A stretch of 64,000 nucleotides of DNA from Nitrospirota bacterium (GTDB taxonomy: Bacteria > Nitrospirota > UBA9217): positions 2,290,907 to 2,354,906 of the forward strand of contig CAWFSF010000006.1 in assembly GCA_963818475.1 (NCBI GenBank), in the 5' to 3' direction. Within the stretch, counting starts at the first letter, position 1, and each line of letters begins with the position of its first letter. The notes under the pieces were generated by a model, which made no database searches, was not told the origin of the DNA, and saw nothing but the letters and a program-made list of their open reading frames with translations. Shown in pieces: positions 9,112 through 63,690 of this stretch. A program made the position numbers and the translations under genes.

Positions 9112-9139
9112 GGAAACCTCCGGTTTCCATTGCGGAGGA

Positions 9140-37275: not shown

Positions 37276-37276
37276 G

Positions 37277-41046: not shown

Positions 41047-41451
41047 TTACCGGATGGAATTATCCTTTTCCGTCGCCGGTTTGATGTCGAGGACGGGCGT
41101 CCCGTCCAACATGTCCAGGCCTTGGATACGAATAACGCTGCCTTCGACGCCGAGGACTTCCACAACCGACATGCCGATGGGATTCGGCCTGATTGGCGAA
41201 CAAATGCTGAAGACACCTAACCGCTCGTTGCGGTGCGGAGGAGTTTGTACCAGAAATTCCGGAGTGAATTGTAGGCTTTGATGGAAATAAAAAAGCACGA
41301 CAATGCTCTGCCCGGCCTTGAGGTCCTTAAGTCCTTGGGCATACTCTTCATTGATAATTATAGCACCTTCAACTTCGGACACGGTCCAGTGCCTCGGGAC
41401 CTTCCCGACATCGGTTTTCACGAAACCTATCGGTTCAAATTCGATCTTCAT
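41047..41451 (-). CDS. tsaA: TsaA/TrmO-like SAM-binding tRNA methyltransferase domain
   Basis: EPIGFV, GVFSICSPIRPNPIG, GLDMLDGTPVLDIKP. Confidence 0.8.
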   Translation of the reverse strand: MKIEFEPIGFVKTDVGKVPRHWTVSEVEGAIIINEEYAQGLKDLKAGQSIVVLFYFHQSLQFTPEFLVQTPPHRNERLGVFSICSPIRPNPIGMSVVEVLGVEGSVIRIQGLDMLDGTPVLDIKPATEKDNSIR

Positions 41452-42215
41452 GACTGACCCCGCTTTAGTAGCCCCCACGCCATCTTCGCCGCTATAACGT
41501 AGAGCACGATGCCGATGATCTTCTTCACCTGATTGGCGTCGAGCTTTTTGTGCATGAGCCATGATCCCAGGATCGCACCCGCGATTGACCCAACGGCAGC
41601 GAACGTCAGCAGGTTCCAGTTGATGCTACCCATGGCCGCATGGCCGAAGAAACCCGAGAGTGACGAGAATACGACGATGAAAGCCGTGGTAGCCGCTGCT
41701 TTTTTTGGATCAATACCGAGCCAGACGAGAGCCGGAACAATGAAGTTTCCACCGCCCACGCCCAAGAGCCCGCCGAGGTACCCCGCGCCTATACCCAGAC
41801 CGATGCCGGTCTTGAGTTCCTTTCCGCTGTCTCTCTGACCCTCCGTTTTCTTTTTCGGTTTATAAAAAAGCATCATCGATGCCGCGAAGACCAGAAAGAG
41901 CACGAATAGTAGAATCAGAACGTTTTTGGGGAAGTACTTCGTCGAATATGCGCCCAGGGGAGAAAAAACGACTGCAAGCACAATGATCGGAATGGCAGTC
42001 CTGAACAGAACAAGGTTGTAGCGGATATAGTTGGCCGACGCAAAGGTCATGCTGATGGCGTTCAACAGCAGGCCGATGGCCATGGCCTCCGTAAGCGGTA
42101 CGCCGAGCCAGTAGAATGTGGGTATTACGATGAAGGCCGATCCCACGCCCGCAATGGTAAGGACCGTGGTGAATACAAAAACGAGAACGGCTGCGGCTGC
42201 ATTAATGGCAAGCAT
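41448..42215 (-). CDS. TauE/SafE sulfite-exporter family protein
   Basis: AGVGSAF..P, GLLGVGGG..IVP, KAAATT; ~8 TM. Confidence 0.85.
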   Translation of the reverse strand: MLAINAAAAVLVFVFTTVLTIAGVGSAFIVIPTFYWLGVPLTEAMAIGLLLNAISMTFASANYIRYNLVLFRTAIPIIVLAVVFSPLGAYSTKYFPKNVLILLFVLFLVFAASMMLFYKPKKKTEGQRDSGKELKTGIGLGIGAGYLGGLLGVGGGNFIVPALVWLGIDPKKAAATTAFIVVFSSLSGFFGHAAMGSINWNLLTFAAVGSIAGAILGSWLMHKKLDANQVKKIIGIVLYVIAAKMAWGLLKRGQS

Positions 42216-42242
42216 GACAGGTCTCCTTTTTTGCCGGACCAT

Positions 42243-42345
42243 ACCCGCACAGAACAGCTTGCCTCAAGGAAGGCAAAGAACGCAGAGAAAAAAGACCCCC
42301 CTGACGAACAGGCATACTCTCCGTTCTCTGCGATCTCTGCTGTAA
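42243..42345. repeat. Palindromic element with CGCAGAG-type nonamer repeats
   Basis: CGCACAGAAC..GCAAAGAACGCAGAGA ... TCTCCGTTCTCTGCGATCTCTGCTGT. Confidence 0.6.
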
Positions 42346-42383
42346 GTCTTACTTTCCGCGCGACGGGTACGACAGGCTTCTCT

Positions 42384-42992
42384 CTATTTCCCGTGCTCGG
42401 CGCAGGGAATGCAAAGAAGCCGTCCGTCAGGAGCCTTTGTCAGTTTATCGGTGAACACCGTCTCTCCGCATTTCGCGCAGCGTTTTACCTCGAAGTTCGG
42501 AGATCCTTTTTTCAAGTCTTTGTGAAACACGTCGCTGATATTCAGGAAGTCGGCTTCGGAAAGCCCAACTATCCGATCGACAAGAGGATCCGTAATCGAC
42601 GCGGGAATATCCTGAGGCGGCACTCCTTTTTTCCTCTCCTGTACAAATGGCGAATTGAGCGCTTTTTCGAAGAATTCCGGCTTCAGTGAGACCCTGACAG
42701 CTTTTCCGGTCCTGGCGTCGATAAGCGTGAAAGCCATTTTATTGTAATAAAGTTTTTGGATGTTAGCCTTGCCGTAGGTGCAGCCGGTGGCGGTCATGAT
42801 GCCATCCAGGAAGCACCCGGCGGCATGTCCTTTGCCCGTCTCCGCTTCCACGAAGAGTTCTTTGTCCTTCGATCGTTCAACGCCGAGCGCCTTCATGGCC
42901 GCGAGACCTGCCCTCAGGCCCATGGGCATGGCCGGGCATTTGTGGCCGTGAAACTTCATTGCGGTGTCAAAATACTCAGTAAATTCTTTCAT
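42384..42992 (-). CDS. FmdE family protein with C-terminal zinc finger
   Basis: FHGHKCP, CFLDG, GCTYGK, CAKCGE...CIPC. Confidence 0.85.
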
Positions 42993-45241: not shown

Positions 45242-46321
45242 TCAAAGCGTATCGGTTCCCTTGACCCTGCAGTATTCAACGCTGAAATAGGTCCGCTGAA
45301 AATACTTGGCCACATTCACCAGGCCGATCAGCACCGGCACCTCGACCAGCGGCCCGATGACCGCGGCGAAGGCCGCGCCGGAATTGATGCCGAACACGGC
45401 TACGGCTACGGCGATGGCGAGTTCGAAATTGTTGCTTGCCGCGGTAAAGGACAGCGTCGCGGTCTTCGGATAGTCCGCTCCGATCTTCTTTCCGAGATAG
45501 AACGAGACCAGGAACATGACCACGAAATAGATCAGCAGCGGAACCGCGATGCGGAGCACATCAAGCGGCAGCTTGACGATGTAGTTGCCTTTGAGCGAGA
45601 ACATGACGACGATCGTGAACAGCAGCGCAATAAGCGTGAGCGGGCTGATCTTCGGGATGAAAACCGTTTCGTACCACTGGCGGTCCTTGATCTTGATAAG
45701 CATGAAGCGGGTCAGCATGCCGGCGATGAACGGGATGCCGAGATAGATGAAGACGCTTTCGGCGATCTGGCCGATGGTCACATCGACGACAACACCCTTG
45801 AGCCCGAACCAGACCGGAAGCACGGTTATAAAGATATAGGCATAGACGGAAAAGAAAAGGACCTGAAAGATCGAGTTGAACGCCACGAGACCGGCGGCAT
45901 ATTCCGTGTCGCCGCAGGCGAGATCGTTCCAGACGATGACCATGGCGATGCAGCGCGCCAGGCCGATCATGATGAGGCCGACCATGTATTCGGGATAATT
46001 GCGAAGAAAAATGATCGCAAGAGCGAACATCAGGACAGGGCCGATGACCCAGTTCTGGACCAGGGACAAGGCGAGGATCTTCTTGTTCCTGAACACTTCG
46101 CCGAGTTCTTCATATTTTACCTTGGCAAGCGGCGGGTACATCATGAGGATGAGGCCGATGGCGATGGGGATATTGGTCGTGCCGACCTGAAAGCTGTTGA
46201 TGAATTCTTCAGTGCCCTGGATGAAATAGCCGAGCCCCACGCCGAGGGCCATTGCCGCAAAGATCCAGAGCGTCAGGAAGCGGTCTACAAATGATAGTTT
46301 TTTCTCCCCCTTCTCAGCCAT
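45242..46321 (-). CDS. acr3: ACR3 family arsenite/antimonite efflux transporter
   Basis: [48 protein letters not shown]. Confidence 0.95.
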
Positions 46322-47581: not shown

Positions 47582-48535
47582 TTACAGAATCGCGTTGAAC
47601 AGATATCCCACGCCGATGATCGTGACCGTCATGATCGAGACGAACACGGCGAGGAGCTTGATCTTGAGCACCTTCCGCAGAATGATCATCTCGGGAAGCG
47701 ACAGGGCCGTGACCGCCATCATGAAGGCCAGCACCGTGCCCATGCTCATGCCTTTTTCCATAAGCGCATAGACGATCGGGATCACGCCCGCGGCGTTGGA
47801 GTAGAGCGGCACGCCGAGGGCAACGGCGATCGGAACACCGAAGGGATTCTGCGGACCGGCATACTGGACCAGGAAATCTTCAGGCACATACCCGTGGATG
47901 AACCCGCCGATGCCGATGGCAACGATCACATAGATCCAGACCTTCTTCAGGATGTCCGTCGTATTCTCCCGGGCGTAGACAAGCCGGTCTTTGAATGTCT
48001 GCTTTGCGATGTCGGCAGCAGCACCCAGGGACTTGATCTTATACACATACTCCTCGACCCATTTTTCAAGCTTCAGCTTGCCGATGATCATGCCCGCGAT
48101 GATCGCCACAAGAAGACCGGTCCCCAGATAGATCAGCGCGATCTTCCAGCCGAAGAGCCCCCACAGAAGCACGACGGCAACTTCATTCACCATGGGGGAG
48201 GAGATCAGAAAGGAGAACGTTACGCCGAGCGGAACACCGGCTTCAACAAACCCGATAAAGAGCGGGACAGCGGAACAGGAGCAGAAAGGGGTGACGATGC
48301 CGAGGAGGGCGGCGAGAATATTACCGATAAACTCTCGTTTATGGGACAGAATGCGTTTCGTCCGTTCAGGAGGAAAGTAGGACCGGATGATGGAAACGAT
48401 GAAGATAATGACGGAAAGGAGCAGAAATATCTTTATTGTGTCGTAAATGAAGAATTCCAGGGCTCCGGAAAGCCGGCTGCCCTGCGCCATGTCGAAAACC
48501 GAGTACACCAGGTAGTGAGCAAATTCCTTGAGCAT
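47582..48535 (-). CDS. DUF318/ArsP-like permease
   Basis: TPFCSCSAVP, LISSPMVNE, GVPLYSNAAG, LSLPE. Confidence 0.85.
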   Translation of the reverse strand: MLKEFAHYLVYSVFDMAQGSRLSGALEFFIYDTIKIFLLLSVIIFIVSIIRSYFPPERTKRILSHKREFIGNILAALLGIVTPFCSCSAVPLFIGFVEAGVPLGVTFSFLISSPMVNEVAVVLLWGLFGWKIALIYLGTGLLVAIIAGMIIGKLKLEKWVEEYVYKIKSLGAAADIAKQTFKDRLVYARENTTDILKKVWIYVIVAIGIGGFIHGYVPEDFLVQYAGPQNPFGVPIAVALGVPLYSNAAGVIPIVYALMEKGMSMGTVLAFMMAVTALSLPEMIILRKVLKIKLLAVFVSIMTVTIIGVGYLFNAIL

Positions 48536-48718: not shown

Positions 48719-50305
48719 TCAGTGGAGTTCCTTTTGACTGGCCAGGATCGTCAGTTTCGGTGATTCCCGCAGCCGGGGCTCGGTCCGGCCGCCATTGTCC
48801 GATAGCTTAAAAAGAGCCACCATCTGGTCGAGTTCGGCAGCCGCTGCGGATAGTTCCTGCGCCGTCGATGCAATTTGCTCCGTGGCGCCGGCGTTCTGCT
48901 GAATGACGTTGTTCAACTGTTCAATAGCACTGCCGATTTGCCCCGCGCCGCCGGCCTGCTCCTTGCTGGCAGCGCTGATCTCCTGCACGAGAGCCGCGGT
49001 CTGCTGAATATCGGGAACCAGCTGTGCCAGCATCTTGCCCGCCCGTTCCGCGACCTCCTTGGTCGTCGATGACAGATGGCTGATCTCCGCCGCAGCGGCC
49101 TGGCTTCGCTCCGCAAGCTTTCGGACCTCGGCCGCGACGACCGCAAACCCTTTTCCGTGCTCTCCCGCGCGGGCCGCCTCGATCGCCGCGTTCAAGGCAA
49201 GGAGGTTCGTCTGACGCGCTATTTCCTCGATGATCGAGATCCGGGAGGCGATATCCTTCATGGCAATGACTGCCTCGGACACAGCCTTGCCGCTTTCGAT
49301 GGCATCGTTGGCCGAACTTTGCGCGATCTTTTCTGTCTGCGCGGCGTTCTCCGCGTTTTGCCTGATCGTGGCGTTCATTTCCTCTACGGACGAAGAGACC
49401 TCTTCGGCCGATGCCGCCTGTTCTGTCGAGCCCTGGGACATCATCTCAGTGCCGGAGGCTATTTGTTGGGCGCTCAGGACGGTCTTTTGGGCGGTTTCCC
49501 TGATCCTGCGGATCAAACCGCTGAGATCGGAAACCATCTTGGAGGTCGCCTGCGCCAGTTGCCCGATCTCGTCCTTGGCCCCGAGATCTACCTTCCGCAG
49601 CAGTTCGTCCCGCAAATCGCCCTGAGAAACCTGCGAATTTATTTCTGCAAGCTTCATGACCGGGCTTATGATGGACCGCCCGATCGCTACAATAAGCAAA
49701 AGAATGATGATGAATATCGTTCCGGTGACCGCAATTGCCGCGATCAGGGTACGTTTGACCATGGCGGCCGCATTGGCCTCCAACTCATCGTTTTCCAGGC
49801 CGATCATCATCACCATGGCGTCTATCTGCTCATTGTAACGTTCGTACCGCTGCTCCTGGATACCAATCGCCATTTCTCGCGCATCCGCATGCCCACCCCG
49901 CTCAATGGCCGGAAGCATGTCGTTCTCGACCGTTGTGAGAAATTCCGACCAGGTCGTCTGGGCGTCCTGGATCGTTATCTTTTTTTCCTCGGTCGTGACA
50001 AGACTGAGTACGCCCGCAAAGCCATCGTCGATTTCCTTCTTGAAACCATCAAGCCGTGCTTTGGTCTGCGCGATACGGTCCTGGTTCGTCTCATCGATAA
50101 TGATCGACACATCCGCGCGATAGTGATTCAGCCTGGTGCTCAGTTTCGCGATCTGCTCAAGCGTGTCCTTGTTCCCCTTGATCGTATTGTACATGTCGCT
50201 GCCGATCCTGACCTTTCCGGTCAGGTACAGACCGATCCCGAAGGTCAGGACGAGTCCCGACAGCACGACCGCGGTGAGCACAAGCAGCTTGTTCCGCAGT
50301 TTCAT
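48719..50305 (-). CDS. Methyl-accepting chemotaxis protein
   Basis: TM-periplasmic domain-TM-HAMP; [37 protein letters not shown]. Confidence 0.93.
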
Positions 50306-50402
50306 GTTTCCGATGGGGTTGGAACACCCCGCTCCATACCTTTGCAAGCCTCCACATAGGGTATCCCCTTCCTCTGGGCAGCTTGATAAAAAAGCCCTGT
50401 TC

Positions 50403-51230
50403 CTATTTTTTTACCGGCACGAAATTTATGCCTACGATCTTCTGACCATCCGGTGAAAGCATGAAATCGATGAATTTCTTTACATCGCCTTTCGGCAGTC
50501 CCTGCGTCACGAGCAAAAGAGGCCGCGAGATCATGTAAGCGCCGGATTGAATGTTCGCCGCCGATGGCGCGATGCCGTTCACGGTCACGGCCTTGACATT
50601 GCCGCGAAGATCTCCACTCACGGCCGCGAGCAGCCCGAAACTGACACCACAAACAGCATTCTCGTTCTTCGCCACGTCCACGATCTGATCGCGCGGGAAG
50701 TCAATCTCCTTGAAGCCCGTTCCATAGGGCGCATTATCCATCGCCATTTCCTGGAACGCCAGCATCGTTGCCCGTTTTTCTCCCGCGACCTCGGTGTTCG
50801 GCCGGATGGGCGCGTCCTTACCACCCACCTCTTTCCAGTTCTTTATCTTGCCGGTAAAGATCCCCTTGACCTGCTCCTTCGTAAGGTTCTTGACCGGATT
50901 GTTCTTATGAACGAAGACTGCAATTGCATCATACCCGATCGCCGTGCCCAGCAGTTTCATTGCTTTTTCCTGGGGCTTCAGAGTGCGCGAGGCGCCGGCA
51001 AGCGTCACTTTTCCATCCAGCAACGCCTGGATCCCTTTTCCCGAGCCCGGTTGATCAATGGATTTGAACTTTATTCCCATTTTCTGCTCGAACGCTTTTA
51101 CCGCTCCTGCTTCCAGCACCGACATCCCGATCGTGGATGAGCCGCTGTAGGAAAGCTCGTCTGCCGCAAATGCAAATCCCGCATTCACGAAAAAAACCGA
51201 CAATAGGAACAACGCAATTTTTCTGATCAT
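50403..51230 (-). CDS. PstS-like periplasmic oxyanion-binding protein
   Basis: Signal peptide, [28 protein letters not shown]. Confidence 0.8.
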
Positions 51231-51860: not shown

Positions 51861-52871
51861 TTATCCCCCGATCTGCGACATGGGAGACATGGCGGGACGG
51901 AGTAAGGACCTCTCTCGAACGGCATGGCGCTCGGGTTTGGACAGAACAGCGCTGCGATAGAGGGCTTCCAGTTCGTCGTCCGATACGCCGTTCCTGAGCG
52001 GAGTTTTGATGTCCACGGTAATTTCTGAAAACAGACAGGGTCTCAGCTTTCCGATCGCCGTAAGGCGCAACCGGTTGCAGGAACCGCAGAAACAATCGCT
52101 GATAGGGCTGATGAAGCCGATCATACCCTGTGCCCCCTCAATGCGGTAATTTCTCGACGGGCCTCCCCCCTTGAACGGAAGCTGAACGAGCGTGCCTGCG
52201 CCTGCTACACGCCCCACGATCTCGTCTTTACTCAGATACGCATCAGGTTTCCATGATCCATTGTTTCCAATGGGCATGAACTCGATAAACCGGATGTGAA
52301 CGTCCTTGTACAGGGTAAGCGCCGCAAACCTGGTTATTTCATCGTCATTGACGCCCCGGACCGGGACCACGTTGATCTTCACCGGCGAGAGGCCGGCTCG
52401 TTCCGCTTCCGCGACCGCTTCCCATACGCGATCGATCTCGCCGCCTCGTGTTATGTCCCGGTAGCGGTCCGCGATTAGTGTATCGAGACTGATGTTTACC
52501 CGGTCGAGACCCGCTTTTTTGAGTTTCTGCGCCATGCCTGCCAGGCGCTGCCCGTTCGTGGTTATACTGAGGTCCTTTATGCCGGCGCTCTTGATGCCTG
52601 AGATCAGCGGGACAATATCTGCACGCAGAAGCGGTTCGCCGCCGGTGAGGCGGACTTTCCTGACGCCGTATTTACACGCAATGCGCACGATCCTGATGAT
52701 CTCGTCGCTCGTAAGAATATCCGACTGGGCGAAGTGCTTGAGCCCTTTTTCCGGCATGCAATAGATGCATTTCAAATTACATTTGTCGGTGATGGAAATT
52801 CTGAGATAGTCTATCTGCCGGTTGAAGGCGTCTTTAAGCGATTCTGATACGTAGGTGTTATTGTTACGCAT
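51861..52871 (-). CDS. moaA: GTP 3',8-cyclase MoaA
   Basis: YLRISITDKCNLKCIYC, LTGGEP, FCGSCNRLRL, C-terminal IGG. Confidence 0.95.
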   Translation of the reverse strand: MRNNNTYVSESLKDAFNRQIDYLRISITDKCNLKCIYCMPEKGLKHFAQSDILTSDEIIRIVRIACKYGVRKVRLTGGEPLLRADIVPLISGIKSAGIKDLSITTNGQRLAGMAQKLKKAGLDRVNISLDTLIADRYRDITRGGEIDRVWEAVAEAERAGLSPVKINVVPVRGVNDDEITRFAALTLYKDVHIRFIEFMPIGNNGSWKPDAYLSKDEIVGRVAGAGTLVQLPFKGGGPSRNYRIEGAQGMIGFISPISDCFCGSCNRLRLTAIGKLRPCLFSEITVDIKTPLRNGVSDDELEALYRSAVLSKPERHAVRERSLLRPAMSPMSQIGG

Positions 52872-52916: not shown

Positions 52917-54051
52917 CTACCCGAGTTTCCCGAAGGGACAGACCGGATACCTGCACACGTCGCACTTCATGCAGAGTCCGCCATGGCCGAGCGCAGCCAC
53001 CTCTTTTCTCCCTATCCGTTCCCCGGCAAGAACGCGGGGAAGGACCAGATCGAAGATCGTGGTCTTTGCATACATGCCGCAGGCGGGAATGCCGAGGATC
53101 GGAATTTCGGAATTCGGATTGCGGATTGCGGATTTCGGATTTCAGCATTACGCATTCCGCATTCCGCATTCTCAAGATACGCGACTAGAAACATTGCCCC
53201 CGGCAAGCACTGCTGAACCGTAGGTGATGTCGCCAGCGCCCAGTTCCCGGATCGCGAACCGTGTCACGTCGTCGGGATCCACGGACATGCCGCCCGTGGT
53301 GATCAGCAGATCGGCTCCTGCCTTCAGCAGTTCCCGCAGCCTGTCCACGATGAATGCCTTGTCGTCCGGCGCATAATAGATGCCCGACAAGCTCCCCGCC
53401 GATTTCTTCGATCTTCTTCGTGATGACCGGCGCGAAGGCGTCCTTGATCCTGCCGTGGTAGACTTCATTGCCGGTGATCACGACGCCGACTTTCGGCTTT
53501 CTTATCTCCTTCACCTGGATGATCGACTCGTGCTTTGTCGACCGCTATCGCAACCGCTGCCTGAACAACATCTTTTCTTCACCACCAGCGGGATCGCCCG
53601 TCGTCCCCGCGACCGTCTGTCCTTTTTTCACGACCGTATTGTCGTGAAGCGTTGCGCACATGACCTCGCCGAGCATGTTGAACTCCAGGAGCGCGTCGCG
53701 GTCGATCTTCAGCAGCCCGTCCCGCTCGGCAATGATGTTGATCTTGCCTTCCTTCGGCTCGCCCTTGATCGCAACACCTCCACCCATAAGCGCCTTGGCG
53801 ATCGCGTAGGCCGCGTCGTTCTCGTGCATCTCGTCTTCGGCGACATGCAGCACGAAGAGATGCTCCTTGCCGAGCCGCTGAAGATGGCAGACATCCTCTT
53901 CCCGGATGACATGTCCTTTTTTAAAAGCCCGTCCCTTGAATTCGCCGGGCCGTATCTCGGTAATATCATGGGCAAGGACCGTGCCTACGGCCTGTTGACC
54001 GGTATCGCTTTCGTGCCAGATTCGTTGCCGTTCCTGAGCGTCGTCACACAT
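52917..54051 (-). CDS. Molybdopterin-binding (MoeA/CinA-like) protein; frameshifted, with an internal repeat insertion
   Basis: LAHDITEI..GEFKG, TGNEV, TGGMSVDPDD, PGAMFL, GIPACGMY, GHGGLC..C..C.YP.CPFGK. Confidence 0.78.
53098..53172. repeat. Heptamer repeat element inside the molybdopterin-binding gene
   Basis: GGAATTTCGGAATTCGGATTGCGGATTGCGGATTTCGGATT ... CATTACGCATTCCGCATTCCGCATT. Confidence 0.75.
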
Positions 54052-54409
54052 GGGAACCTCCCTTGAATATGCTCCTGAATCGTTTATCGACGATCTCTTG
54101 TATGCCTTTTTCCAGCGCTTCGTACTTTTTCAGAAATTTCCGCGCATCAGCCGTCAAGGCGGCGCCGCCGCCGTTCTTGCCGCCCGTCTGCCGATCGACC
54201 AGCTTCACGCCCAGCCGCTCTTCCATGGCCTTGATATGGCCCCATGCCTTGCGGAAGGAGATATCGACTTCCTGTGCCGCCTGGTTGATCGAACCGTGGG
54301 AATCTATGGCTTCCAGGAGAAAGCGCCTGCCCCGGCCGAAGACCGGCTCGCCTCCGACCTCGATCCAGATCTTTGACCTGATATCCAAACCGTTATGACT
54401 TTTCTGCAT
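54044..54409 (-). CDS. modE: ModE-like winged-helix regulator
   Basis: FGRGR..LLEAI..HGSINQAA..ISFRKAW, GGKNGGGA.LT. Confidence 0.8.
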   Translation of the reverse strand: MQKSHNGLDIRSKIWIEVGGEPVFGRGRRFLLEAIDSHGSINQAAQEVDISFRKAWGHIKAMEERLGVKLVDRQTGGKNGGGAALTADARKFLKKYEALEKGIQEIVDKRFRSIFKGGSHV

Positions 54410-54441
54410 AACGCACCGCCAATAAAAACCGCTTCCCTTCT

Positions 54442-55019
54442 TCACTGTTCATAGTAGCCGCCCTGAGCGCAGGCAACGCACAGGACCTTGCCGTCCCGAT
54501 AGACTTCCCTCATGTCCTGAACATGCTCGCCGCAGGAGTCGCACTGCACCCTGCGCATCGGCCTGCCCGGCATGTCCTCGGGCCGAAGCTTCACGGACAA
54601 CTTCCATCACTTCGAAAAGCTCTTCATCGGCCATGATCTTGTACGCTTCAAGCTGTGCGGCATATTTGTTCTCGATTTCCGGGAAATGCTCCTTTTGCCT
54701 TATCGCGGGAATCCTCCCGGGCGACGATCCGTATTGCCTTGCCTGTTTTGAGATTCAGGTACGTCGCCGCCATCTTGCCGTAGTCCATGAACTTCATGCT
54801 CCGCTTGCCGAGGCTGCAGCCGGTCACGGACTGGACCGCGTCGGTGGCGCACCGGTCCATCTCAACGAACACGATCAGGCTTTTCCTGTCCGCTCCCTTC
54901 GGGTCGCTGATGCCGATCTCCCGGAGTCCGAGCATGGACATGCGGACACCCAGCACCTGCCCCGCGCAGAGGTGGCCGTGGACCTTGACGGACTCCAGTA
55001 AGAGAGCTTCGAAATCCAT
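54442..55019 (-). CDS. FmdE family protein (frameshifted)
   Basis: [21 protein letters not shown]-terminal CDSCGE...CVAC. Confidence 0.78.
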
Positions 55020-55043
55020 GTATTCCGTCAGAAGCTTTCATTA

Positions 55044-55632
55044 TCATCTCCCGATCGCTTCAATGACCTGCCGTGTCGTCCGTGCCAGAGCTCTGAATAA
55101 CGGCGTCTCCGCGGCGTTCTCCATATCACGCGTAAATTGCGGCACCCATTTCATGAGATGTTCGTTCAGAAGTGTACCGGTCCTGTCCGGCTCGTTCCTT
55201 TCTGCCTGTGACCGACTGAGTCCGCTGAAGCAGAACAGCAAGAAAATTCAGTTCCACACCGATATGGTCCGGCATCACGTCATCCGTGTTGATCGTCAAT
55301 CCGGCCCCGGCATACAGCTCCCGAACCTGGTCCGCCGAATCCTGCATCATGAGTTTCTTCGGAGAAGTGTATACGGATTCCCAGGGAGGGCAAGGCAGCT
55401 TGTAAGGCCCGATAAAAAGACGGGTGTATTCCCACAACAGCTCTTCGAGCTCCGCCTCCGACGTCGTGTCGATGTCGTTGAGCGTTTTCTTCAGCTCGTC
55501 AAGAAAGAACGACGTTTCTCCGGAAAGCGCCGTTTTCCAGCTTTCCAGGGCTTCACGGGAAGGCTTGCAGAGATACATGCTGCTTAACAAAGAAAGCGCT
55601 TCCGATGGCGTTGTCATTTCCTCAATCATCAT
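55044..55632 (-). CDS. TorD/DmsD family chaperone (frameshifted)
   Basis: EYTRLFIGP, PPWESVY, PDHIGVEL, HLMKWVPQF. Confidence 0.85.
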
Positions 55633-55676
55633 GATCAATACGGGAGGGGCAGGATCGCTGCCCCTCCCGTCTCCTT

Positions 55677-56253
55677 CTATTTGTTTTCGGAAAACTTCAC
55701 CGATGGCCTGGTCAGCTTCGGATCGGCAAATCCCGGCAAACTTTCCTTCAACGGCCTCCGGTAAATGTCCGGCGGCGTCTTCTGCGCTTCGATATCGGAC
55801 ATCTTCCCGTGCCAGAGCGAATACCCGAGGCAGGTCCTGACGCACGCCGGGCGGCAGACCTTCCTTGAGCCGGTGGTAGCAGAGGTTGCATTTGTCCACC
55901 TTCTTTTTCGCGGCGTCGAACTGCGGAGCGCCGTAGGGACAGGCGGCCATGCAGCGCTTGCAGCCGATGCACTTCTTCTGGTCGTGCAAAACCACGCCGA
56001 ACTCCGGCTCCTTGGTGTACGCGCCGACCGGACACGCCTTGAGGCATGCCGGCTCTTCGCAGTGGTTGCAGGCCGTGGAAATATAGCGCACCTTGGCATT
56101 CGGATACTTGCCTTCCTCTTTGATGATCACCCGCCTGCGGCGGACGCCGATCGGGAGGTCGAACTCCTGCTTGCAGCCCGCCTCGCAGGCCCTGCATGCA
56201 ATGCAGTTGTTTTCATTATAGTACCAGCCTATTTGATTTGGATTTTTCGCCAT
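55677..56253 (-). CDS. 4Fe-4S dicluster electron-transfer subunit (PsrB/ArrB/DmsB-like; frameshifted)
   Basis: CIACRACEAGC, CNHCEEPACLKACP, CIGCKRCMAACP, KCNLC...PACVRTC. Confidence 0.88.
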
Positions 56254-56266
56254 TGTTATTTCCTCC

Positions 56267-58789
56267 CTATGCCTTCATGACCCGGACGCCGATTTCCTTG
56301 TGAACGGCCATGCCGGAGAATTTTTCGGCCTTGCCCGGCAGGAACTGTCCGTCGCCGGTTCCCGCTGCGGACCATTTATTTAACGTGTTCATCGATCCCC
56401 GTGCGATCTTGCCGAAGCCCCAATGCCCGTACCCGTGGTGCAGGGCCACGACCTCGGGATGGATCCGCTCGGAGACCTGCACGGTCCCCTTGGCCTTTGC
56501 AAAGGAAGACTCGATCCAGATGGCGTCCCCGTCCTTGAGACCGAGCTTTTCCGCCGTGGCCGAGTTCATGATGAGCGGGTTGTCGGGCTTCATTTCCATC
56601 AGATAATCGTTGTTGAAGGTCCGGGAATGGGTGTGCTCGTTCTGCTTGTAGTTCACGAGATGGAGCGGGAACTCCGCTGTCGGAGCGTCTTCGGGCGCGC
56701 TGTATTCAGGCAGGCCGCTGTGCTTGTTCTTCTTGAGGAATGCCGAGGTGAGCTCCAGCTTCCTGGTCGGCGTTTCGAAGCCCTTGCAGATCTTCTCGCC
56801 GATCTTAACGCCTACTGCCTTGGCTTTGCCGTCAGCTCCCGGCTTCTCCTTCACCACGCCGGTCTTTTCGTCGATGCTGCCGCCCTCCGGCATCTTGACC
56901 TCTTTCCGGAATTTCTCGTATTCCGTCTTGCCGGTCATCGCGAGCGTGGACTTTTTGTATGCCTCCCAGTTCTGTTCCTTGACATAAGGCGTCGGGTTGT
57001 ACTCGTCGGCATAATAGGCGTCATAGGTATTGTCCGCGGGAGAATATCCTTTTTTGTCCTTCATGCCCCATCTTCTTCATGACCGCCATCCAGAACTCGA
57101 CTTCGGTCAGGCCGTTGATCACGGACTTGACCACCGGCTTCCTGAGTCCCAGGACCGGCCAGGTAACCCAATAGCCCGGTGAAGTCATACCGTTCGAGGT
57201 AGACCGAGCCGGGGATCACGATGTCCGCCAGTTCCGCGGTCTCGCTCATGTGCGTGTCGTTCACGACCACGTACTCGAGCTTCTTCATGAAGTCGATGAT
57301 TCTTCTTCGTATTCGGCACGGACATGACGAAGTTCTGGTACACGAACACACCCGCCTTCGGCACGCCGGAGCCCGGTGTCGATTCCTTGCCCGCCAGCAC
57401 CACGTCCCTGGTCTCGACATAGATGCCCGAGCCGTGGCCCGAGAATGTATTTGGTTCCCTTGCCGTCCACACGCGGTTTTTTCAACGAAGGAAGATCGAC
57501 ATCGAGCGCGTGATAGGCATTTCCTTTCTTACTCGGCACCATCATCGTGCCGGGCTTGTCGATCATCCCGAGCAGCGCCGGCAGGACGGTAATGGCATAT
57601 CCGCCGAGCGTGGCGTTCGTGTGGTGGCCCGGTCCGCTCCAGGTGTCGATGACCACCCCTTTCCCGGCCTTCGCCGTCTCGCCGATCTCCGTGGCGATCT
57701 GTTCTATCGTGGCAGCCGGGTACGCTGCTGATCTTCTCCGCCCATTCGGGCGTCTTGTCCGCGACATACGCTGCGTATTCGTCGAACCCGACGTCCACTC
57801 GTCGATAAAGGGTTTGTTGACAAGGTTCTTCTTGATCAGCACGTGGCCGATGGCCAGCGCCATGGCTCCGTCCGTTCCCGGACGGATCGGCACCCACTGG
57901 TCCGCCTTGGCCGCCGTCTGGCTGCTGAAGGGGTCAACATAGACCATCTTCGCGCCCTTGGCCCTGCCCCGGTTCCAGATGCCGGGCAGATGGGTCCATT
58001 TGGTCGCGCCGAGCAGGTTCCAGCCGAACACCAGGGCATAGGACGTGTCTTCAAAATCCGCAAGCGGACGCTCGTCTCCCATGGAAAGCTTGAATGATGC
58101 CTTGCGCGCAACATCGCAAAGATTGGCGTGGTTATGGTAGTTCGGCGTGCCGAACATTTTGCAGAAGTCCTGCTGGATGTGTGTGAAACAATGGTCTTCG
58201 CTGAACCATGCGAGGCTTTCGGCGCCGTGCTTGTCCTTGATCTTCTGCAGGTTCTCTGCAACCTGCGTCACTGCCTTATCCCAGGAAATTGCCTTCCACT
58301 TGCCGCTGCCCCGCTCACCGACCCGCACCATGGGCGTCTTGAGCCGGTCCGGATCGTACAGGTTCCGAAGCCCTGCATTTCCCTTGGAACAGAGCCTGCC
58401 GGCCGCATCCTTATCATTATAAAGCGCCGCCGAGGTCTGCAACCACTTTATCGTAGTTTGTCGAGATATTCGCGATATTGTTCGGGATTGGCGATGCCCT
58501 CGATCTTCACGGCCCGGCCATTCACGACCTTGACCTTGATACCGGACTGGCCGCCGCACATGTTGCAGTTGCTGTAGATCCATTCCCCGTCCTTCAGGCT
58601 TTTCTCCTGCGCACTCGCTTCCCTGAACAGTCCGAGTTGACCATCCCAGAGAAGCCCGCTGGCGACGGCCGCGCCGGCGAGGGCCGACGACCATTTGAGG
58701 AACGACCGCCTGGTGAACTCTTTGCCCGTAACTTCCTTGAACAGATTTTCCTCGTCTTTTGTGATAGTCCTATCCTCGCTCATCGACAT
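56267..58789 (-). CDS. Tat-exported molybdopterin oxidoreductase catalytic subunit (PsrA/PhsA/ArrA superfamily; several frameshifts)
   Basis: TRRSFLK Tat motif, CNMCGG...LCSKG, YDPDRLKTP, GTPNYHNHANLCDVARK, IRPGTDGA, HTHSRT, HHGYGHW. Confidence 0.85.
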
Positions 58790-58795
58790 CCTCCT

Positions 58796-59152
58796 TTACT
58801 GGACGAACAATTCTTTTGCGCCTTTTACGCCGCCGCTATGGCACCCGGAACAAATCTGGGGATCGACCTGCTTCCGGAGTGCCGCCCCGGAGCCATTCCT
58901 GAGATCAACGGACTGATGACAGTCAACGCAGTTCTTCGGCGTATCTTTTTTTGATTCCAGGTGCACCCTGTGGAACGTCTTGTACTTTTTATTCAGCGGA
59001 ACTTCCTTCAAAATCCCCGCATGGCACGCGAGGCACTCCTTTTTGGCCATCTTTCCTGCGTTCTTATGCAGTTCGACAAGATTCTTCTCGGCAGCTCCCG
59101 CTGCAGCAGCGGAGAGCAGAAGCGCCAAACAGCCGATCACCAGATTCTTCAT
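58796..59152 (-). CDS. Small periplasmic triheme c-type cytochrome
   Basis: Sec-pathway signal peptide; CLACH, CVDCH, CSGCH. Confidence 0.85.
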   Translation of the reverse strand: MKNLVIGCLALLLSAAAAGAAEKNLVELHKNAGKMAKKECLACHAGILKEVPLNKKYKTFHRVHLESKKDTPKNCVDCHQSVDLRNGSGAALRKQVDPQICSGCHSGGVKGAKELFVQ

Positions 59153-59165
59153 AACAAGCCTCCTC

Positions 59166-59333
59166 TCAGGAATTACTTTTAGCAGGTTGATCCTCTTTTG
59201 CCGCGAGCGACTTTTTGAATCCTCCGATTGCCTCGCCCAGACCCTTACCCAGCCCCGGCAGCCGCGACGGCCCGAAGAGCACAAGAACGATCACGAGAAT
59301 AATCACTATTTCAGGCATTCCCAATCCGAACAT
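59166..59333 (-). CDS. tatA: Twin-arginine translocase TatA (missed by the ORF track)
   Basis: MFGLGMPEIVIILVIVLVLFGPSRLPGLGKGLGEAIGGFKK; RBS GGAGG. Confidence 0.9.
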   Translation of the reverse strand: MFGLGMPEIVIILVIVLVLFGPSRLPGLGKGLGEAIGGFKKSLAAKEDQPAKSNS

Positions 59334-59367
59334 GGTTCACCTCCATTCCGCAACGTATGATTTTTTC

Positions 59368-59688
59368 TTAATGTCGGGGATTTTTGCTGACCCTATCCAT
59401 TGCCTCTATCACGGCATTTTCAACCATGATCAAGGGAGATCCGATTTCGCCGCCTCTGCCCGTTTCCACGTAGTAATGGGGAGGTAGATAATTGAGGGCC
59501 AGAGCGATGATGTCGTTCAGACAGCGTTGACATTTGCAGATGCGGTACCGGTTGTCATGGAAGAAGTTGTTCAGAGCGGTCAGAACGCTCTCGTAATTAG
59601 CATTCCTGACGGAACAGTTTGCCAATTGTTCGCGGTTCCACGCCACCATCGACTTAGGAACATTCTCGGTAATAGAGTTAGAACGCAC
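59368..59688 (-). CDS. ComFB (late competence development) family protein; start uncertain
   Basis: VRNANYE..V, CKCQRCLNDIIALALNYLPPHY, VSKNPRH. Confidence 0.8.
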   Translation of the reverse strand: MRSNSITENVPKSMVAWNREQLANCSVRNANYESVLTALNNFFHDNRYRICKCQRCLNDIIALALNYLPPHYYVETGRGGEIGSPLIMVENAVIEAMDRVSKNPRH

Positions 59689-59699
59689 GCGTGTAGTAT

Positions 59700-59863
59700 T
59701 ACAAAAAACGTACCATTTCCAAATATCTGAACTTTAAGGATTATGAAAAAGAGGATGTTTCGACGTCGGAACAATAAATAGCAAAAAAAGTGGATAACAG
59801 ACGGAATTCGTTCGAAGTTTAAAAGAAAACGGGGTTACAGGAAGGTGTTACGGTTTCGTAACA
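59700..59863 (-). promoter_or_regulatory. Putative sigma54 promoter and upstream activator palindrome for the reductase operon
   Basis: Minus strand TGGTACGTTTTTTGTA (59700-59715, GT at -12); palindrome TGTTAC-N6-GTAACA at 59846-59863. Confidence 0.5.
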
Positions 59864-59934
59864 GTTTTTGATCTCGGCAGGAAAGAAAGTTTGGTGGACG
59901 TTGGAGCAAATAGGTGGTTTACGAGAATTATGAC

Positions 59935-61275
59935 TTAAGTCCGTATGCCGTTCATCTTTTCCCACAGGGTTTTCCGGCTGATGCCGAGCATTTCTGCTGC
60001 TTTTGTTTTGTTTCCCTGGGCGATCGCCAGGATTCGGATGATATGTTCTTTCTCTGCCCCGGCTGCAACTCCGCACAGCGTCACAGGACTCCACTGCTTT
60101 CCAGCTTTCCGGAAAACGACGGGAGGAAGGTCGTCTTTCTCTATGACATCGGAGCCAGCCAGCGTAGCGCCCCGTTCCACAATGTTTTCCAGCTCTCTGA
60201 CATTGCCCAGGATAGTCGTACTGCATAAGCGCCGTCATGGCATCCTTCGAGAAACGCACGGTCTTTGCGGTCCTGTTCCGGCATTTGCCCAGAGCGAAAT
60301 CCACGAGCGCGGGGATGTCCTCTCTGCGTTCCCGGAGCGGCGGGATCACGACGGGAATCACATTCAGGCGGTAGTACAGGTCTTCCCGGAAGCGACCGGC
60401 CTTTACTTCTTCTTCAAGATTTCTATTGGTCGCCGTGAGAACCCTCACGTCTATTTTTAATGTCTCAGTTCCGCCCACTCGCTCGAACGTCTTCTCCTGG
60501 ATCACCCGAAGAAGTCTTGTCTGTGTGGAAAGCGGCATGTCCCCTATCTCATCGAGAAAGATCGTGCCTCCGTTCGCCAGCTCGAACCTGCCCGGTTTTC
60601 TTCTGACCGCGCCGGTGAACGCGCCCTTTTCATGGCCGAAGAGCTCGCTCTCGATCAGGGTCTCCGGCAGGGCCGCGCAGTTGATCTTGATGAGCGGCTT
60701 GTCCTTCTCGCCTGCTCTGATAATGAATGGTCGTCGCGATCAGCTCCTTGCCGGTCCCGCTCTCGCCGAGGATCAAGACCGTCGAATCCGAGGCCGCAAC
60801 CTTCTCGATCAGTGGAAAAGACCTTCTTCATGGCCGCGCTTTCACCGATGATGTTCGGAAAGCAGAAATACCGGTTGATGTCCTTTCGCAGCCGGATGTT
60901 GTCTTCCCGGAGCCTCTTCATTTCCAAGGCCCGTTCGATCAGCATCCGGAACTCGTCCAGGGAAAAAGGTTTTGTAATGTAGTCGAACGCGCCGAGCTTC
61001 ATCGCCTCGACCGCATCTTTGATCGTACCGAAGGCCGTCATGACGATCACGGGCACGTCGCTCGATGCTGCGATCTCTCTGAGGATCTCGATCCCGTTCT
61101 TATCGGGAAGGCGAATATCCGTCACCACCACGTCGCAGGCGCGTTCCTTGAATGCGGCAAGACCGTCCGCGCCGTTCTCGCAGGCGATGACACTGTAACC
61201 CGATGCTTTGAGCGAGTCCTCAATGGTCACGCGCATCAATTTTTCGTCTTCAATGACAAGGATCGTTTCCTTCAT
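59935..61275 (-). CDS. Sigma54-dependent response regulator (frameshifted)
   Basis: Receiver ILVIEDE, GAFTGA (in an alternate frame), [34 protein letters not shown]. Confidence 0.85.
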
Positions 61276-61279
61276 CTTC

Positions 61280-62768
61280 ACTTCACCCTCTCGCCGCCAG
61301 CGGGAAAGCTCATGGTAAATCTGCTGCCCTTGCCCCACATCGCTCTCCACGGTGATCTCGCCGTTATAGTTTTTCATGATTCCGTAGGTGAGCCACAAAC
61401 CGAGGCCGGTCCCCTCCCCGGTCGGCTTTGTGGTAAAGAAAGGATCGAATATCCTGCCGACATTCTCCGGCGCTATGCCGGTCCCCGTATCGATGATATC
61501 GATCTTGACCGCGCCGTTATCCTGGTCGCCCGCTGATTCTGAGATGACCTCCGTTACTGCATCGCGTGAACCGCGTTGATCATAAGGTTCAGGAGCATCT
61601 GCTGAAAATCGTGAAGATCCACGATGACGTGCAGGTCGTCCGGTACGTCATTGACGAATGTAATGTTGTTCTTCTGGATCTTGTACTCCACAAAATGATA
61701 GACGCCGTCCACGGCGTTCCGGACATTGACGTCAACAGGCGCATGCTCGGACTTCCGGGACATCCAGAGCAGTTTGCTCACCGTCGTTTCTATCTTGTCG
61801 AGGCCCTCTTTTACCAGGGCAAGGTATCGCTCCCGGAACTCGGGGTCGTCCCGCTCTGCTTCAGCATCTCAACGCAGTTGAAGAGACCGCCAAGGGGATT
61901 ATTGATCTCGTGAGCCACGCCGGAGGCAAGAATGCCTATGGATGCCAGTTTCTCGGACTGGATCATCTTCTCGTTGGCTTTCCGAAGGTCTTCATTGGCC
62001 TGCCGTATGCGCTCGATCATGCTGTTGAAGCGTTCCCCCAGCACGGCCAGTTCGTCATGGCCCTTCACGTCGACCTTGACGTCCAGGTAATCGCCGCGCG
62101 CCTTCTCCATGGTGCTCGCGAGCTGCGTAATGGGATTGATGAATCTCCGGCTGAGCAGCAGAATGACGGCAAAGCCGACGGCTACAAGAATCAGCGTCAG
62201 CAGGACGATCTTGCCGATCGTGGTAATGATCTCATGTTCAGCCTGTTCAAGGGAAACGCCGATCTTGAGCGTGCCCCATCGCTTCTTGCCGATGGATAGA
62301 GGGACGCCGATGTCAAGTGCCGCATGTCCCTTGCTGGCAAAATCGCTGAATGATCGTGTTTTCCGCCGCACGCGACTTTGCGGTCAGAGGATCGGAATAG
62401 ACCTTGCCGTATTCCGTGATGTCATTATGGGAGATCACCCTGCCGTCCTCGTCGATGATCACCAGATAGAGAAGGTCCAGGTCCCGGCGGTTGAATATCT
62501 CCATGATGTAGTTGTCGAGGAGTCCGCCTTCCTCGACCAGTCCGAGCCGCTCGTAGATGAGATCGTTCAGGATGGGGATGGCAAGCGTCTCGCCGAGCAG
62601 CTTGCCCTGCCGTTCGACATCGCTGTACAGGATGGATTTCTCCCGCTGGACGGAAACATAGCCGATCACGCCCATCAGGACGATAATGGCCGAGGTGGTG
62701 ATCAGGATGAATTTCGATTGCAGCCGCAATCCGTCAAATGTGTTCCAGATTCTTTTCATACTCTTCAA
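61280..62768 (-). CDS. HAMP-domain sensor histidine kinase (frameshifted; end approximate)
   Basis: TM-periplasmic-TM-HAMP, SEKLASIG..GVAHEINNPLGG, NAVHA, PFFTTK..GTGLGL. Confidence 0.82.
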
Positions 62769-62769
62769 C

Positions 62770-63690
62770 TCACAGTTGTATCTTTGGATGGCACCCCAAC
62801 CCGCAGGTTCGGGGCACGGCGTTTATCTTGGAACGTATGTCCGCGTAATCGGCATCAGAAGCGTCCGTAAAGCCGCTCTTCAGGTCGTCATCAAGCCTTT
62901 GCAGCATCTTCTTATGGTCCGGGTCGTCGGGATTCAGGGCCAGCAGCGCCCGCTTGATGTTCTCGATCACTGCATACGGCGTCCCCGGACCGGCCACGAG
63001 CGGTCCGGTTGGTATCGGCTCCGATTCTGCGATGATTTCGATGCCGAGCTTGCTGTATTTTCTCGCCACCGAATCCCGTACCGCTCCTGCATCCTGTTGT
63101 CCCTTCAGAACCGCCTTGACAACAGAATCGTGATAGTCAAAGTTGGCATAGCGGCCGAGATCGCTCAGGTGCAGTCCGGAGTTCGCCAGGAGATATCGGG
63201 GAATCAGGTTCCCGGATGTGGATTTGGAAGCGGAAAACGCAACACTCTTGCCCTTCAATTCGGAGAGTTGTTTGAGCGCAGACCCCTTTTTTGTGATGAT
63301 CACGCTCCGGTACCGCGAGTCCCCGTTCGCGCCTTTCGGTTTCAGGATGCTTACGGCGCCGTACTTCGCACGGGCCTCAAGGTAGGTCAACGGTCCGAGC
63401 AGAGCCACATCCATATCACCGCTTCCCAGCGCATTGACCGTATCCTCGTAATTCTTCTTCAGCACCAACTCATACGTGTACGGGGTCTTGGCAGCGAGGT
63501 AATCGAGGAGCGGTTGATATTTTTCAAAGAGAATGCGTGGATTATCCCTCGGTATCAGGACGAGTGGCGTTGGCTTCCCGTCCTCCAGCACCTGGATATT
63601 GGCGGCTGTATAAGCGCCGAAAGCTTCGGGAACATTCTCCACTGGTTCCGGAGTTAGGCGTTTCAGGTAGCAGGGATTAGTTTCCATCAA
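62770..63690 (-). CDS. PhnD/AioX-like periplasmic oxyanion-binding protein; N-terminus anomalous
   Basis: IPRDNP, YRSVII, STSGNLIP, HDSVVKAV, DAGAV; no signal peptide; C-terminal CGLGCH. Confidence 0.78.
   Translation of the reverse strand: MMETNPCYLKRLTPEPVENVPEAFGAYTAANIQVLEDGKPTPLVLIPRDNPRILFEKYQPLLDYLAAKTPYTYELVLKKNYEDTVNALGSGDMDVALLGPLTYLEARAKYGAVSILKPKGANGDSRYRSVIITKKGSALKQLSELKGKSVAFSASKSTSGNLIPRYLLANSGLHLSDLGRYANFDYHDSVVKAVLKGQQDAGAVRDSVARKYSKLGIEIIAESEPIPTGPLVAGPGTPYAVIENIKRALLALNPDDPDHKKMLQRLDDDLKSGFTDASDADYADIRSKINAVPRTCGLGCHPKIQL

Follow-up and report, generated by a model that had tools for sequence, protein, structure and literature searches.

We examined a 64,000-nucleotide stretch of the genome of a Nitrospirota bacterium (GenBank assembly GCA_963818475.1, contig CAWFSF010000006.1, positions 2,290,907 to 2,354,906; hereafter, the window), whose minus strand carries, at 52.9-63.7 kb, a gene cluster for a putative exported molybdoenzyme and its sensory apparatus. 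Three-frame translation and Pfam/NCBIfam scans located every gene that an earlier reading of the sequence alone (the sequence-only reading) had named there, namely those for a PhnD-like binding protein, a HAMP kinase, a sigma54 regulator, ComFB, TatA, a cytochrome c, the Mo and Fe-S subunits, TorD, and proteins of molybdenum cofactor (Moco) biosynthesis. The genes follow one another in the order X (binding protein), S (sensor kinase), R (response regulator), comFB, tatA, cytochrome, A (catalytic subunit), B (Fe-S subunit), torD, FmdE-ModE, MoeA-like, MoaA, PstS-like, methyl-accepting chemotaxis protein (MCP), ArsP, and Acr3. This arrangement is far beyond chance, given that the order cytochrome-A-B repeats in 31 of 80 related loci. 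The genes encode a real, conserved, and widespread enzyme system, whose subunit make-up differs from those of the Psr, Phs, and Arr enzymes and whose context points to arsenic or antimony.

The catalytic subunit A (56270-58783, minus strand) is an 836-amino-acid (aa) protein when its frameshifts are read through, and 801 of the 836 residues (96%) are identical to those of the metagenome protein P0001. It carries a twin-arginine translocation (Tat) signal (RRSFLKW), matches to PF04879, PF00384, PF01568, and PF10518 on its separate frame pieces, and the active-site region quoted in the sequence-only reading (FGTPNYHNHANLCDVARK), with the Cys ligand of the metal within NHANLCDVARK and an FS0 iron-sulfur motif CNMCGGQS...C. 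Subunit A is therefore a member of the family named after dimethyl sulfoxide (DMSO) reductase, made up of molybdenum- or tungsten-bis-pyranopterin guanine dinucleotide (Mo/W-bisPGD) enzymes, another name for which is complex iron-sulfur molybdoenzymes (CISM); three of its domains are also found on full-length relatives that are 74-89% identical. Immediately upstream lies the gene of a c-type cytochrome (58799-59152, minus strand), a 118-aa precursor with three heme-binding motifs (CLACH, CVDCH, and CSGCH) and a Sec-type signal ending in an AxA site. Downstream of A are the genes for B (55680-56253, minus strand; one indel), a DmsB-like four-cluster ferredoxin subunit of 191 aa, 184 of which are identical to the B subunit of the related locus L017, and for D (55050-55656, minus strand; PF02613; one indel), a Tat chaperone of the TorD/DmsD family. 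An intact 55-aa TatA (59166-59333, minus strand) precedes the cytochrome and has tblastn matches in the relatives as well.

To our query, the largest in-frame piece of A, 1286 proteins were related at E <= 1e-20. Among the 120 matches listed, 71 have identities of 74-89% and lengths of 686-838 aa; the listed relatives come only from metagenomes or metagenome-assembled genomes (MAGs) and bear either generic names or the KEGG-style/JGI name "thiosulfate reductase/polysulfide reductase chain A," and matches in the ESM Atlas carry generic names only. A scan of one genome per GTDB species returned 568 relatives, of which the best 80 loci were used for all locus counts given here. The carriers include Nitrospirota, NC10/Methylomirabilota, Armatimonadota, Chloroflexota, Acidobacteriota, Methanoperedens, a Thaumarchaeota MAG, and others, and no orthologue was found in those genomes of the same genus that were searched. 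One divergent member occurs in a Bacillota/Clostridia MAG (L053:2273-5835), where a shorter protein (697 aa) is encoded directly after acr3 and is followed by a B subunit, with neither a cytochrome nor an NrfD protein detected. The only named isolate among the best 120 relatives of this member is Carboxydocella sp. JDF658 (53%).

The loci fall into two architectures, as read by tblastn of the window's proteins and of the neighbors of a distant family member over the 80 loci. In 31 loci the cytochrome is encoded directly upstream of A, followed by B and TorD, with no match to NrfD (PF03916), and in 37 loci an Fe-S protein and NrfD are encoded upstream of A with no cytochrome. The remaining 12 loci show neither pattern, being either on short contigs or having the Fe-S protein alone. 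The cytochrome and anchored types form separate clades of 25 and 17 rows in our tree (support of 99 each). The two halves also differ in their B subunits: that of the cytochrome type is DmsB-like (160 bits), while that of the anchored type resembles DsrO, TtrB, and NrfC, has its own Tat signal, and is encoded beside a DsrP/QrcD-like membrane protein of the NrfD type. Because both the type of B and the anchor or cytochrome differ between the halves, both electron-transfer modules have been exchanged; the double swap can be seen by comparing L013:77-2185 (anchored) with L017:5541-6113 (cytochrome type). NrfD was likewise not found in the window. The nearest NrfD match in the genome lies about 240 kb away, and each match adjoins another set of Mo/Fe-S genes. 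The absence of the anchor is thus a conserved trait of this half of the clade and not a gap in this genome, and the triheme cytochrome noted in the sequence-only reading is conserved there too.

The cytochrome itself is equally well conserved. Its three CxxCH motifs and three further His residues are invariant in all 24 aligned sequences, a pattern that fits three hemes with bis-His ligation. In most copies a short Sec-type signal ends in AxA; a lipobox-like Cys takes its place in the Methanoperedens copies and in one further copy, from a bacterium. Five hemes are present in the archaeal copies and in that of locus L070. Matches to known families are faint: the Cytochrome_C7 model (PF14522) scores 26.0 bits against a cut-off of 24.8, a search of PDB sequences with the cytochrome profile gave no significant match (best E-value of 0.007), and a heme-free AlphaFold model (mean predicted local distance difference test [pLDDT] score of 68.6) had no Foldseek matches in the PDB and a single row in VIA-align wide (Z of 2.1). 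To a model of the complex, we supplied the B subunit of L017, the mature cytochrome of the window, and three hemes. The resulting score was 0.84, compared to 0.01 for the best of three controls; 116 of 157 solved complexes and 2 of 215 mismatched pairs attain this mark, a calibration that is only rough because we used our own alignments and ligands. At least 90% of contacts are shared between runs, and the partner has a pLDDT of at least 84. On B, the modeled contacts involve two loops that bind clusters and the conserved tail at the C terminus; on the cytochrome, they involve the regions of the second and third hemes. The model supports, without demonstrating, binding of the cytochrome to B, and suggests that the cytochrome does not act as a free carrier but is docked as a third subunit. 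Of the "soluble triheme cytochrome" in the sequence-only reading, the three conserved hemes therefore stand, while docking on B is favored by the model over free diffusion.

A similar design is known from the formate dehydrogenase FdhABC3 of Desulfovibrio, in which soluble Mo/W and Fe-S subunits are joined by a dedicated small multiheme cytochrome c that replaces the membrane subunit, and in which electrons are exchanged with the periplasmic cytochrome pool. FdhABC3 differs in belonging to another lineage of the DMSO reductase family, in its Sec/Cys ligand, formate substrate, and tetraheme cytochrome c3, and in its regulation.

The full-length members of the family score below every NCBIfam equivalog cut-off. 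Scores on the PhsA model NF012032 are 380-453 bits against a cut-off of 694 (n = 4; P0001, 380.5), those on the ArrA model NF041714 are 197-253 bits against 1600 (P0001, 197.9; pieces of the window's A, 111 and 52), and those on the TtrA model NF011567 are 101-141 bits against 1750 (P0001, 101.5). To place the family, we built a quick IQ-TREE tree with a short search (57 rows and 794 columns, with long branches among the references), from which 14 dropped rows, one locus without a match, and one ArrA locus with an internal TGA were left out. The references were drawn from a sample of 301 Bacillota genomes and comprised ArrA (1150-1197 bits over the model's full length, with the RGRY motif present), Ttr-like proteins (622-887 bits on the TtrA model), and eight Psr/Phs proteins, two of them above the PhsA cut-off and six Psr-like. 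A branch (Shimodaira-Hasegawa-like approximate likelihood ratio test, 94) separates all 42 family rows from the other rows, and the family is sister to the 8 Psr/Phs rows (100), rather than nested inside them. The 4 ArrA rows (100) and 3 Ttr-like rows (100) lie further off. The placement proposed in the sequence-only reading, in a DMSO reductase tree after repair of the frameshifts, was thus carried through for ArrA, Psr/Phs, and Ttr-like proteins.

By these comparisons, A belongs to an unnamed clade of the DMSO reductase family that lies outside ArrA, PhsA, and TtrA, the references compared having contained no AnrA. A member of the same clade, ASW-6_02220, was found through the motif NLCDVARK in Data Set S1B of Leu et al. 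2020 (PMC7327174), where the clade is labeled "Unk." The limited literature that we searched yielded no description of the clade or of a thioarsenate reductase. Two published candidates, the Soe-like one of PMC6620896 and the Ttr-like arsenate reductase of Limisphaera, are from other families. The suggestion of an unnamed clade is accordingly borne out by model scores, tree, and published label alike, and the outcome that would have spoken against it, a firm position in a characterized clade with an anchor subunit encoded elsewhere, is not what we observe.

The active site sets the family apart from the enzymes with which it might be confused. ArrA is described as having a motif RGRY at residues 163-166 together with His189, Cys193, Lys198, and Tyr210 (PMC13685797). 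In the family, the RGRY columns read S/T-E-D-H (aligned columns F-S-E-D-H), while the four ArrA-type references in the same alignment do show RGRY; the equivalents of His189, Cys193, and Lys198 are kept, and the Tyr210 column holds residues other than Tyr. The GRGWG motif of ArxA (residues 164-168) is also absent, its columns reading S-E-D-H-C/S. The segment NH[AS]NLCDV[AS]RK is almost invariant in the family, compared to SHEA[ST]CP.TRN in PhsA. The FS0 motif (window positions 58500-58600, minus strand) is unusual as well, in all family loci: it follows C-x2-C-x3-[S/T], with a 10-25 residue insert ahead of a much later last Cys, as opposed to the C-x2-C-x3-C of the ArrA, PhsA, and Ttr-like references. 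Most members have Ser or Thr at the third position; in L026, L039, L045, L048, L054, L066, and L091, it is occupied by Cys. A Ser or Thr at this position may reflect a 3Fe cluster or an oxygen ligand.

The nearest lineage raises the question of whether the enzyme is an ordinary polysulfide or thiosulfate reductase of the Psr/Phs type that happens to be wired to cytochromes. Like PsrABC and PhsABC (the Thermus structure 2vpw and the Salmonella PhsA model), the family has a four-cluster B subunit and a Mo-bisPGD subunit that is exported by Tat, holds a Cys ligand, and carries an Fe-S domain at its N terminus; an NrfD-type anchor is retained in the sister half of the clade. PhsA is also the best-scoring model, the Thermus PsrA-type protein 2vpw is the best solved relative (1.2e-35), the JGI names say thiosulfate or polysulfide reductase, the carriers include Dissulfurispiraceae and Ca. 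Sulfobium, and periplasmic enzymes of sulfate reducers are often connected to cytochromes. We nevertheless consider a sulfur reductase unlikely, on account of scores well below the PhsA cut-off, a separate branch, and the family's own invariant active-site segment. Oxyanion sensors of the PhnD type and ars genes also recur nearby, and the clusters scanned showed neither a rhodanese nor a Sud partner, apart from one rhodanese open reading frame (ORF) far upstream in L029. The family differs from PsrABC and PhsABC in its mostly Ser/Thr third FS0 position as well, and its cytochrome-type half has a triheme cytochrome and a DmsB-like B but no PsrC/PhsC anchor.

The sensory genes upstream of the enzyme are of the XSR type, that is, a PhnD-family protein, a histidine kinase with a periplasmic sensing domain, and a sigma54 response regulator beside the enzyme genes, as the sequence-only reading had proposed. 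X (62773-63690, minus strand; PF12974, 225 bits) is a single-domain periplasmic binding protein without a visible signal peptide. S (61284-62759, minus strand) combines sCache_3_2, HAMP, HisKA, and HATPase_c domains, has five indels and no in-frame stops, and is identical to the kinase of L016 at 344 of 489 positions. R (59934-61275, minus strand) combines Response_reg and Sigma54_activat domains with a Fis-type helix-turn-helix (HTH_8), has four indels, and is identical to the regulator of L016 at 313 of 445 positions. Of the 31 cytochrome-type loci, 8 have all of X, S, and R encoded upstream, as does L067. The best solved relatives of X are PtxB (5o2j, 3.6e-20), ArrX (6x6b, 3e-14), and AioX (2e-8), along with PhnD-type proteins. 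In the relatives, X is one protein of 566-581 aa with two tandem PhnD domains (L016:4448-6190, L029:3268-5004, L038:4157-5893, and L025:4037-5734), and the window's X aligns to residues 310-581 of the L016 protein, the second PhnD domain only; the last 300 bases to the contig end encode nothing related to the first. Elsewhere, PhnD proteins accompany other two-component systems, of the LuxR type in an Armatimonadota locus (L037) and of an archaeal HTH type in L044, and a Methanoperedens locus (L043:4041-5752) pairs a PstS-like protein with a HAMP protein. A PstS-like protein and a chemoreceptor are also encoded near the enzyme in L053 (~6200-9140) and L082, as they are in the window, and the recurrence of this pair in distant lineages suggests either taxis or a second route by which a phosphate-like anion is sensed.

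Regulation through sigma54 is suggested by promoter-like elements. A match to the -24/-12 motif, TGGTACGTTTTTTGTA, lies upstream of comFB (59700-59715, minus strand). The matches within the window are, by themselves, not significant (6 observed versus 11.2 expected). Across loci, 11 of 32 have an element of this kind upstream of the cytochrome gene on the coding strand, compared to 1 of 32 on the opposite strand and to a mean of 0.7 and a maximum of 3 in 200 shuffles, and they are present in 7 of the 10 loci in which a sigma54 regulator is visible. The small ComFB-family protein (59368-59688, minus strand; PF10719, 47 bits) is an accessory one, encoded between the regulator and tatA in only three cytochrome-type loci, namely the window, L017 (2158-2424), and L036 (168-494). 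All three have a sigma54-like element upstream of the ComFB gene.

The two most distal genes of the cluster bring in arsenic. Acr3 (45245-46321, minus strand) scores 466 bits on TIGR00832 against an equivalog cut-off of 282.8 and is an arsenite efflux transporter, and ArsP (47585-48535, minus strand; PF03773, 281 bits) is a permease. The "ars/acr3 operon" of the sequence-only reading holds up in part, for these two genes; neither ArsR nor ArsC was seen among the window ORFs that were scanned. Besides the window, Acr3 with at least 63% identity lies in the flanks of 9 of the 34 type-1 loci and 1 of the 46 type-2 loci, often accompanied by ArsR, ArsC, ArsP, or ArsM-like genes; in L025, for instance, genes for ArsR, Acr3, an ArsM-like methyltransferase, and ArsC adjoin X. 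By a rough estimate, a 3-Mb genome with one or two acr3 genes would have one within a 20-kb window about 1% of the time. Canonical ArrA was found neither in the window's genome nor in five other carrier genomes, in which the best ArrA-model scores are 115-152 bits. The repeated adjacency of acr3 and ars genes across phyla supports a link between the enzyme and arsenic or antimony.

The system resembles ArrAB(C) and ArxAB(C) in being a periplasmic member of the DMSO reductase family that is often found beside ars operons and together with an XSR set (PhnD-like X, kinase S, regulator R), and in keeping the equivalents of His189, Cys193, and Lys198. It differs from them in the lack of both RGRY and GRGWG, in its low ArrA score (198 versus 1600 bits), in its long separate branch, and in having a cytochrome in place of ArrC or ArxC. 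Arsenate respiration by enzymes of this family outside ArrA has precedent in the Ttr-like arsenate reductases of Pyrobaculum, Anaeromyxobacter PSR-1, and Limisphaera (PMC13608581 and PMC7331816). Those enzymes sit in the TtrA/SrdA lineage, and our clade is far from the Ttr-like references in the tree.

Taken with its XSR and ars neighbors, the architecture leads us to propose, with about even confidence, that the clade's cytochrome type is a three-subunit periplasmic molybdoenzyme that acts as a respiratory reductase of an oxyanion of the As(V) or Sb(V) type. A tetrahedral oxyanion in the periplasm would be sensed by X and S, and R would then activate a sigma54 promoter, probably switching on expression. 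Subunit A would be exported by Tat with the help of TorD and the dedicated TatA, with B riding along, and the cytochrome, exported by Sec, would dock on B and supply the Mo site with electrons drawn from the pool of periplasmic cytochromes. Because the cytochrome and the DmsB-like B take the place of the NrfD anchor, these electrons would arrive via the periplasmic cytochrome network and not directly from quinol. The oxyanion reduced at the Mo site would be arsenate in the first place and antimonate in the second, with thio-arsenic species also possible, and the toxic trivalent product would be dealt with by the neighboring Acr3 and ArsP.

Several observations weigh against this proposal. The pocket is unlike that of ArrA, with Arg165 replaced by Ser and Tyr166 by Glu, so that binding of arsenate cannot be argued from homology. 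The nearest characterized relatives act on sulfur compounds, and the host is from a sulfur-cycling lineage. X is closer to the phosphite-binding PtxB (75 bits) than to ArrX (56 bits), and in this genome it is without its first domain and a visible signal peptide. Many related contigs are short, so little can be read from a lack of X-S-R or ars genes on them. The tree references come from a sample of one phylum and include no labeled SrrA, SreA, ArxA, or AnrA. The substrate is a prediction from gene content and context. Finally, adjacency to ars genes is also typical of arsenite oxidase islands and so would fit either direction of the reaction.

The last point bears on the possibility that the enzyme works in the oxidative direction, as a periplasmic dehydrogenase passing electrons to the cytochrome pool from arsenite or from a donor of very low potential, such as phosphite or sulfite. 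Such a role would suit the similarity of X to PtxB, the pst and phoU genes beside the archaeal L044 cluster, and the PstS-like genes beside others. Soluble enzymes of sulfate reducers that consist of A, B, and a cytochrome are typically donor-oxidizing (the FdhABC3 type), and Aio and Arx islands carry XSR and ars genes too. The proposed hemes speak for the opposite direction: three bis-His hemes would usually be of low potential, which would make arsenite oxidation uphill. The ArxA motif GRGWG is absent, no Mo-dependent phosphite oxidase is known, and the Methanoperedens carriers need electron acceptors rather than donors. Because of the low-potential bis-His hemes and the Methanoperedens carriers, we favor reduction over arsenite oxidation, and we regard an oxidative enzyme as quite improbable.

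If the substrate is a metalloid oxyanion, the enzyme could instead belong to a family that already has a name, the antimonate reductase AnrA of Desulfuribacillus stibiiarsenatis (BHU72_07145) and Geobacter sp. SVR. AnrA is likewise a DMSO reductase family enzyme tied to a metalloid oxyanion, and is presented in the literature as specific for Sb(V). The NCBIfam hits of our family include no AnrA model. Among the best 120 relatives of a Geobacteraceae member of our family (P0088), no protein is from a complete genome and none is named Geobacter, and among the best 120 relatives of the Bacillota member L053, none is named Desulfuribacillus; with names on only about one-quarter of proteins, this is weak evidence against AnrA. 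The Geobacter anr cluster reportedly contains X, S, and R regulators and resistance genes, and Acr3 exports Sb(III) too, both of which would agree with an antimonate reductase. Antimonate, however, is octahedral and would be a poor fit to sensors of the PhnD or PstS type. On balance, identity with AnrA seems rather improbable to us.

Returning to the proposed reductase of As(V)- or Sb(V)-type oxyanions, we also entertain a bolder version of it, in which the clade constitutes a third, unrecognized type of respiratory arsenic oxidoreductase beside Arr/Arx and Aio: a cytochrome-wired arsenate or thioarsenate reductase spread by gene transfer. We put this forward tentatively and with some doubt. 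Thioarsenate is a candidate substrate because the clade is akin to thiosulfate reductase and thioarsenate is the arsenic analogue of thiosulfate. Having its own triheme cytochrome would plug the enzyme into periplasmic and extracellular cytochrome networks. Were this so, gene transfer would have carried the enzyme through groundwater and sediment Nitrospirota, NC10, Armatimonadota, Methanoperedens, and others, and surveys based on arrA would overlook a large share of the potential for arsenic mobilization.

The release of arsenic and antimony into groundwater is tracked by the marker genes arrA, arxA, and aioA. The clade described here is common in MAGs from aquifers, paddies, and sediments, including those of anaerobic methanotrophs, where it occurs beside ars genes and oxyanion sensors; its annotations read only "molybdopterin oxidoreductase" or "thiosulfate/polysulfide reductase." Should it act as a reductase of arsenate, antimonate, or thio-arsenic compounds, it would be a missing marker gene. 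It would also be a case of a quinol-linked Psr-type enzyme rewired to cytochrome c by the exchange of both electron-transfer subunits. Because intact orthologous operons exist in public contigs, the hypothesis is directly testable.

The window's own copy is interrupted. The frameshifts noted in the sequence-only reading are present, and frameshift-aware alignment of intact orthologues to the DNA resolves them into 8 single-base indels in A and 22 further indels in six neighbors (S, R, B, TorD, FmdE-ModE, and MoeA-like). One explanation is that, in this genome, the cluster is an array of decaying pseudogenes, irrespective of the family's role in other genomes. It would account for 30 frameshifts in about 10 kb beside the intact MCP, PstS-like, and MoaA genes, and for the X that is without a first domain and a signal peptide. 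However, none of the seven affected genes has an in-frame stop, A and B are 96-97% identical to intact orthologues, and insertions make up 25 of the 30 indels, contrary to what the usual deletional bias would produce. The window also ends exactly at the end of its contig (C6), in a MAG of 7 contigs that is 91% complete and 6% contaminated. Other genes are affected in the same way: Mo enzymes on contig C2 are likewise split across frames, and NuoL of the complex I operon (window positions 6734-8696, minus strand) is split into two overlapping frames, one with Proton_antipo_N and positions 1-67 of the M domain and the other with positions 81-294 and the C-terminal domain. Since NuoL lies in the same window, the errors reach beyond the enzyme cluster. 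The indels at 57065, 57441, 57793, and 55849 are absent from contigs of two sediment metagenomes (shares of 0.06 and 0.05), which represent relatives, mostly less than 90% alike, other than the source strain.

From the excess of insertions, the lack of in-frame stops, the high identity, the contig end, the split NuoL and C2 genes, and the indel-free relatives, we conclude that the approximately 30 indels are most likely errors of an unpolished assembly at a contig end and not gene decay, which we consider improbable. What fits this conclusion less well is the density of about one indel per 330 bp at 52.9-62.8 kb next to the intact MCP, PstS-like, and MoaA genes, from which it follows that the density of errors is patchy. 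A statistic based on stop-to-stop ORF coverage failed to mark error-rich regions at this G+C content.

The remaining genes of the cluster lie between torD and ArsP, all on the minus strand. An FmdE domain fused to a ModE-type HTH (54053-55031; three indels) corresponds to a single 324-aa protein in L016 (13407-14378), and this fusion is kept 3' of TorD in many loci. It is followed by the MoeA-like Moco biosynthesis protein (52926-54111; eight indels), an intact MoaA (51864-52871; PF04055 and PF06463), and, from domain scans, an intact PstS-family binding protein (50406-51230) and an intact MCP (48722-50347). A second FmdE gene and a TauE exporter are located further off, both in the window (41451-42992) and in L016. 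A second, fragmentary piece of an ArsP-family permease lies at 36868-37510, about 10 kb from the Acr3 gene, and adjoins genes for a small thioredoxin-fold protein and universal stress proteins.

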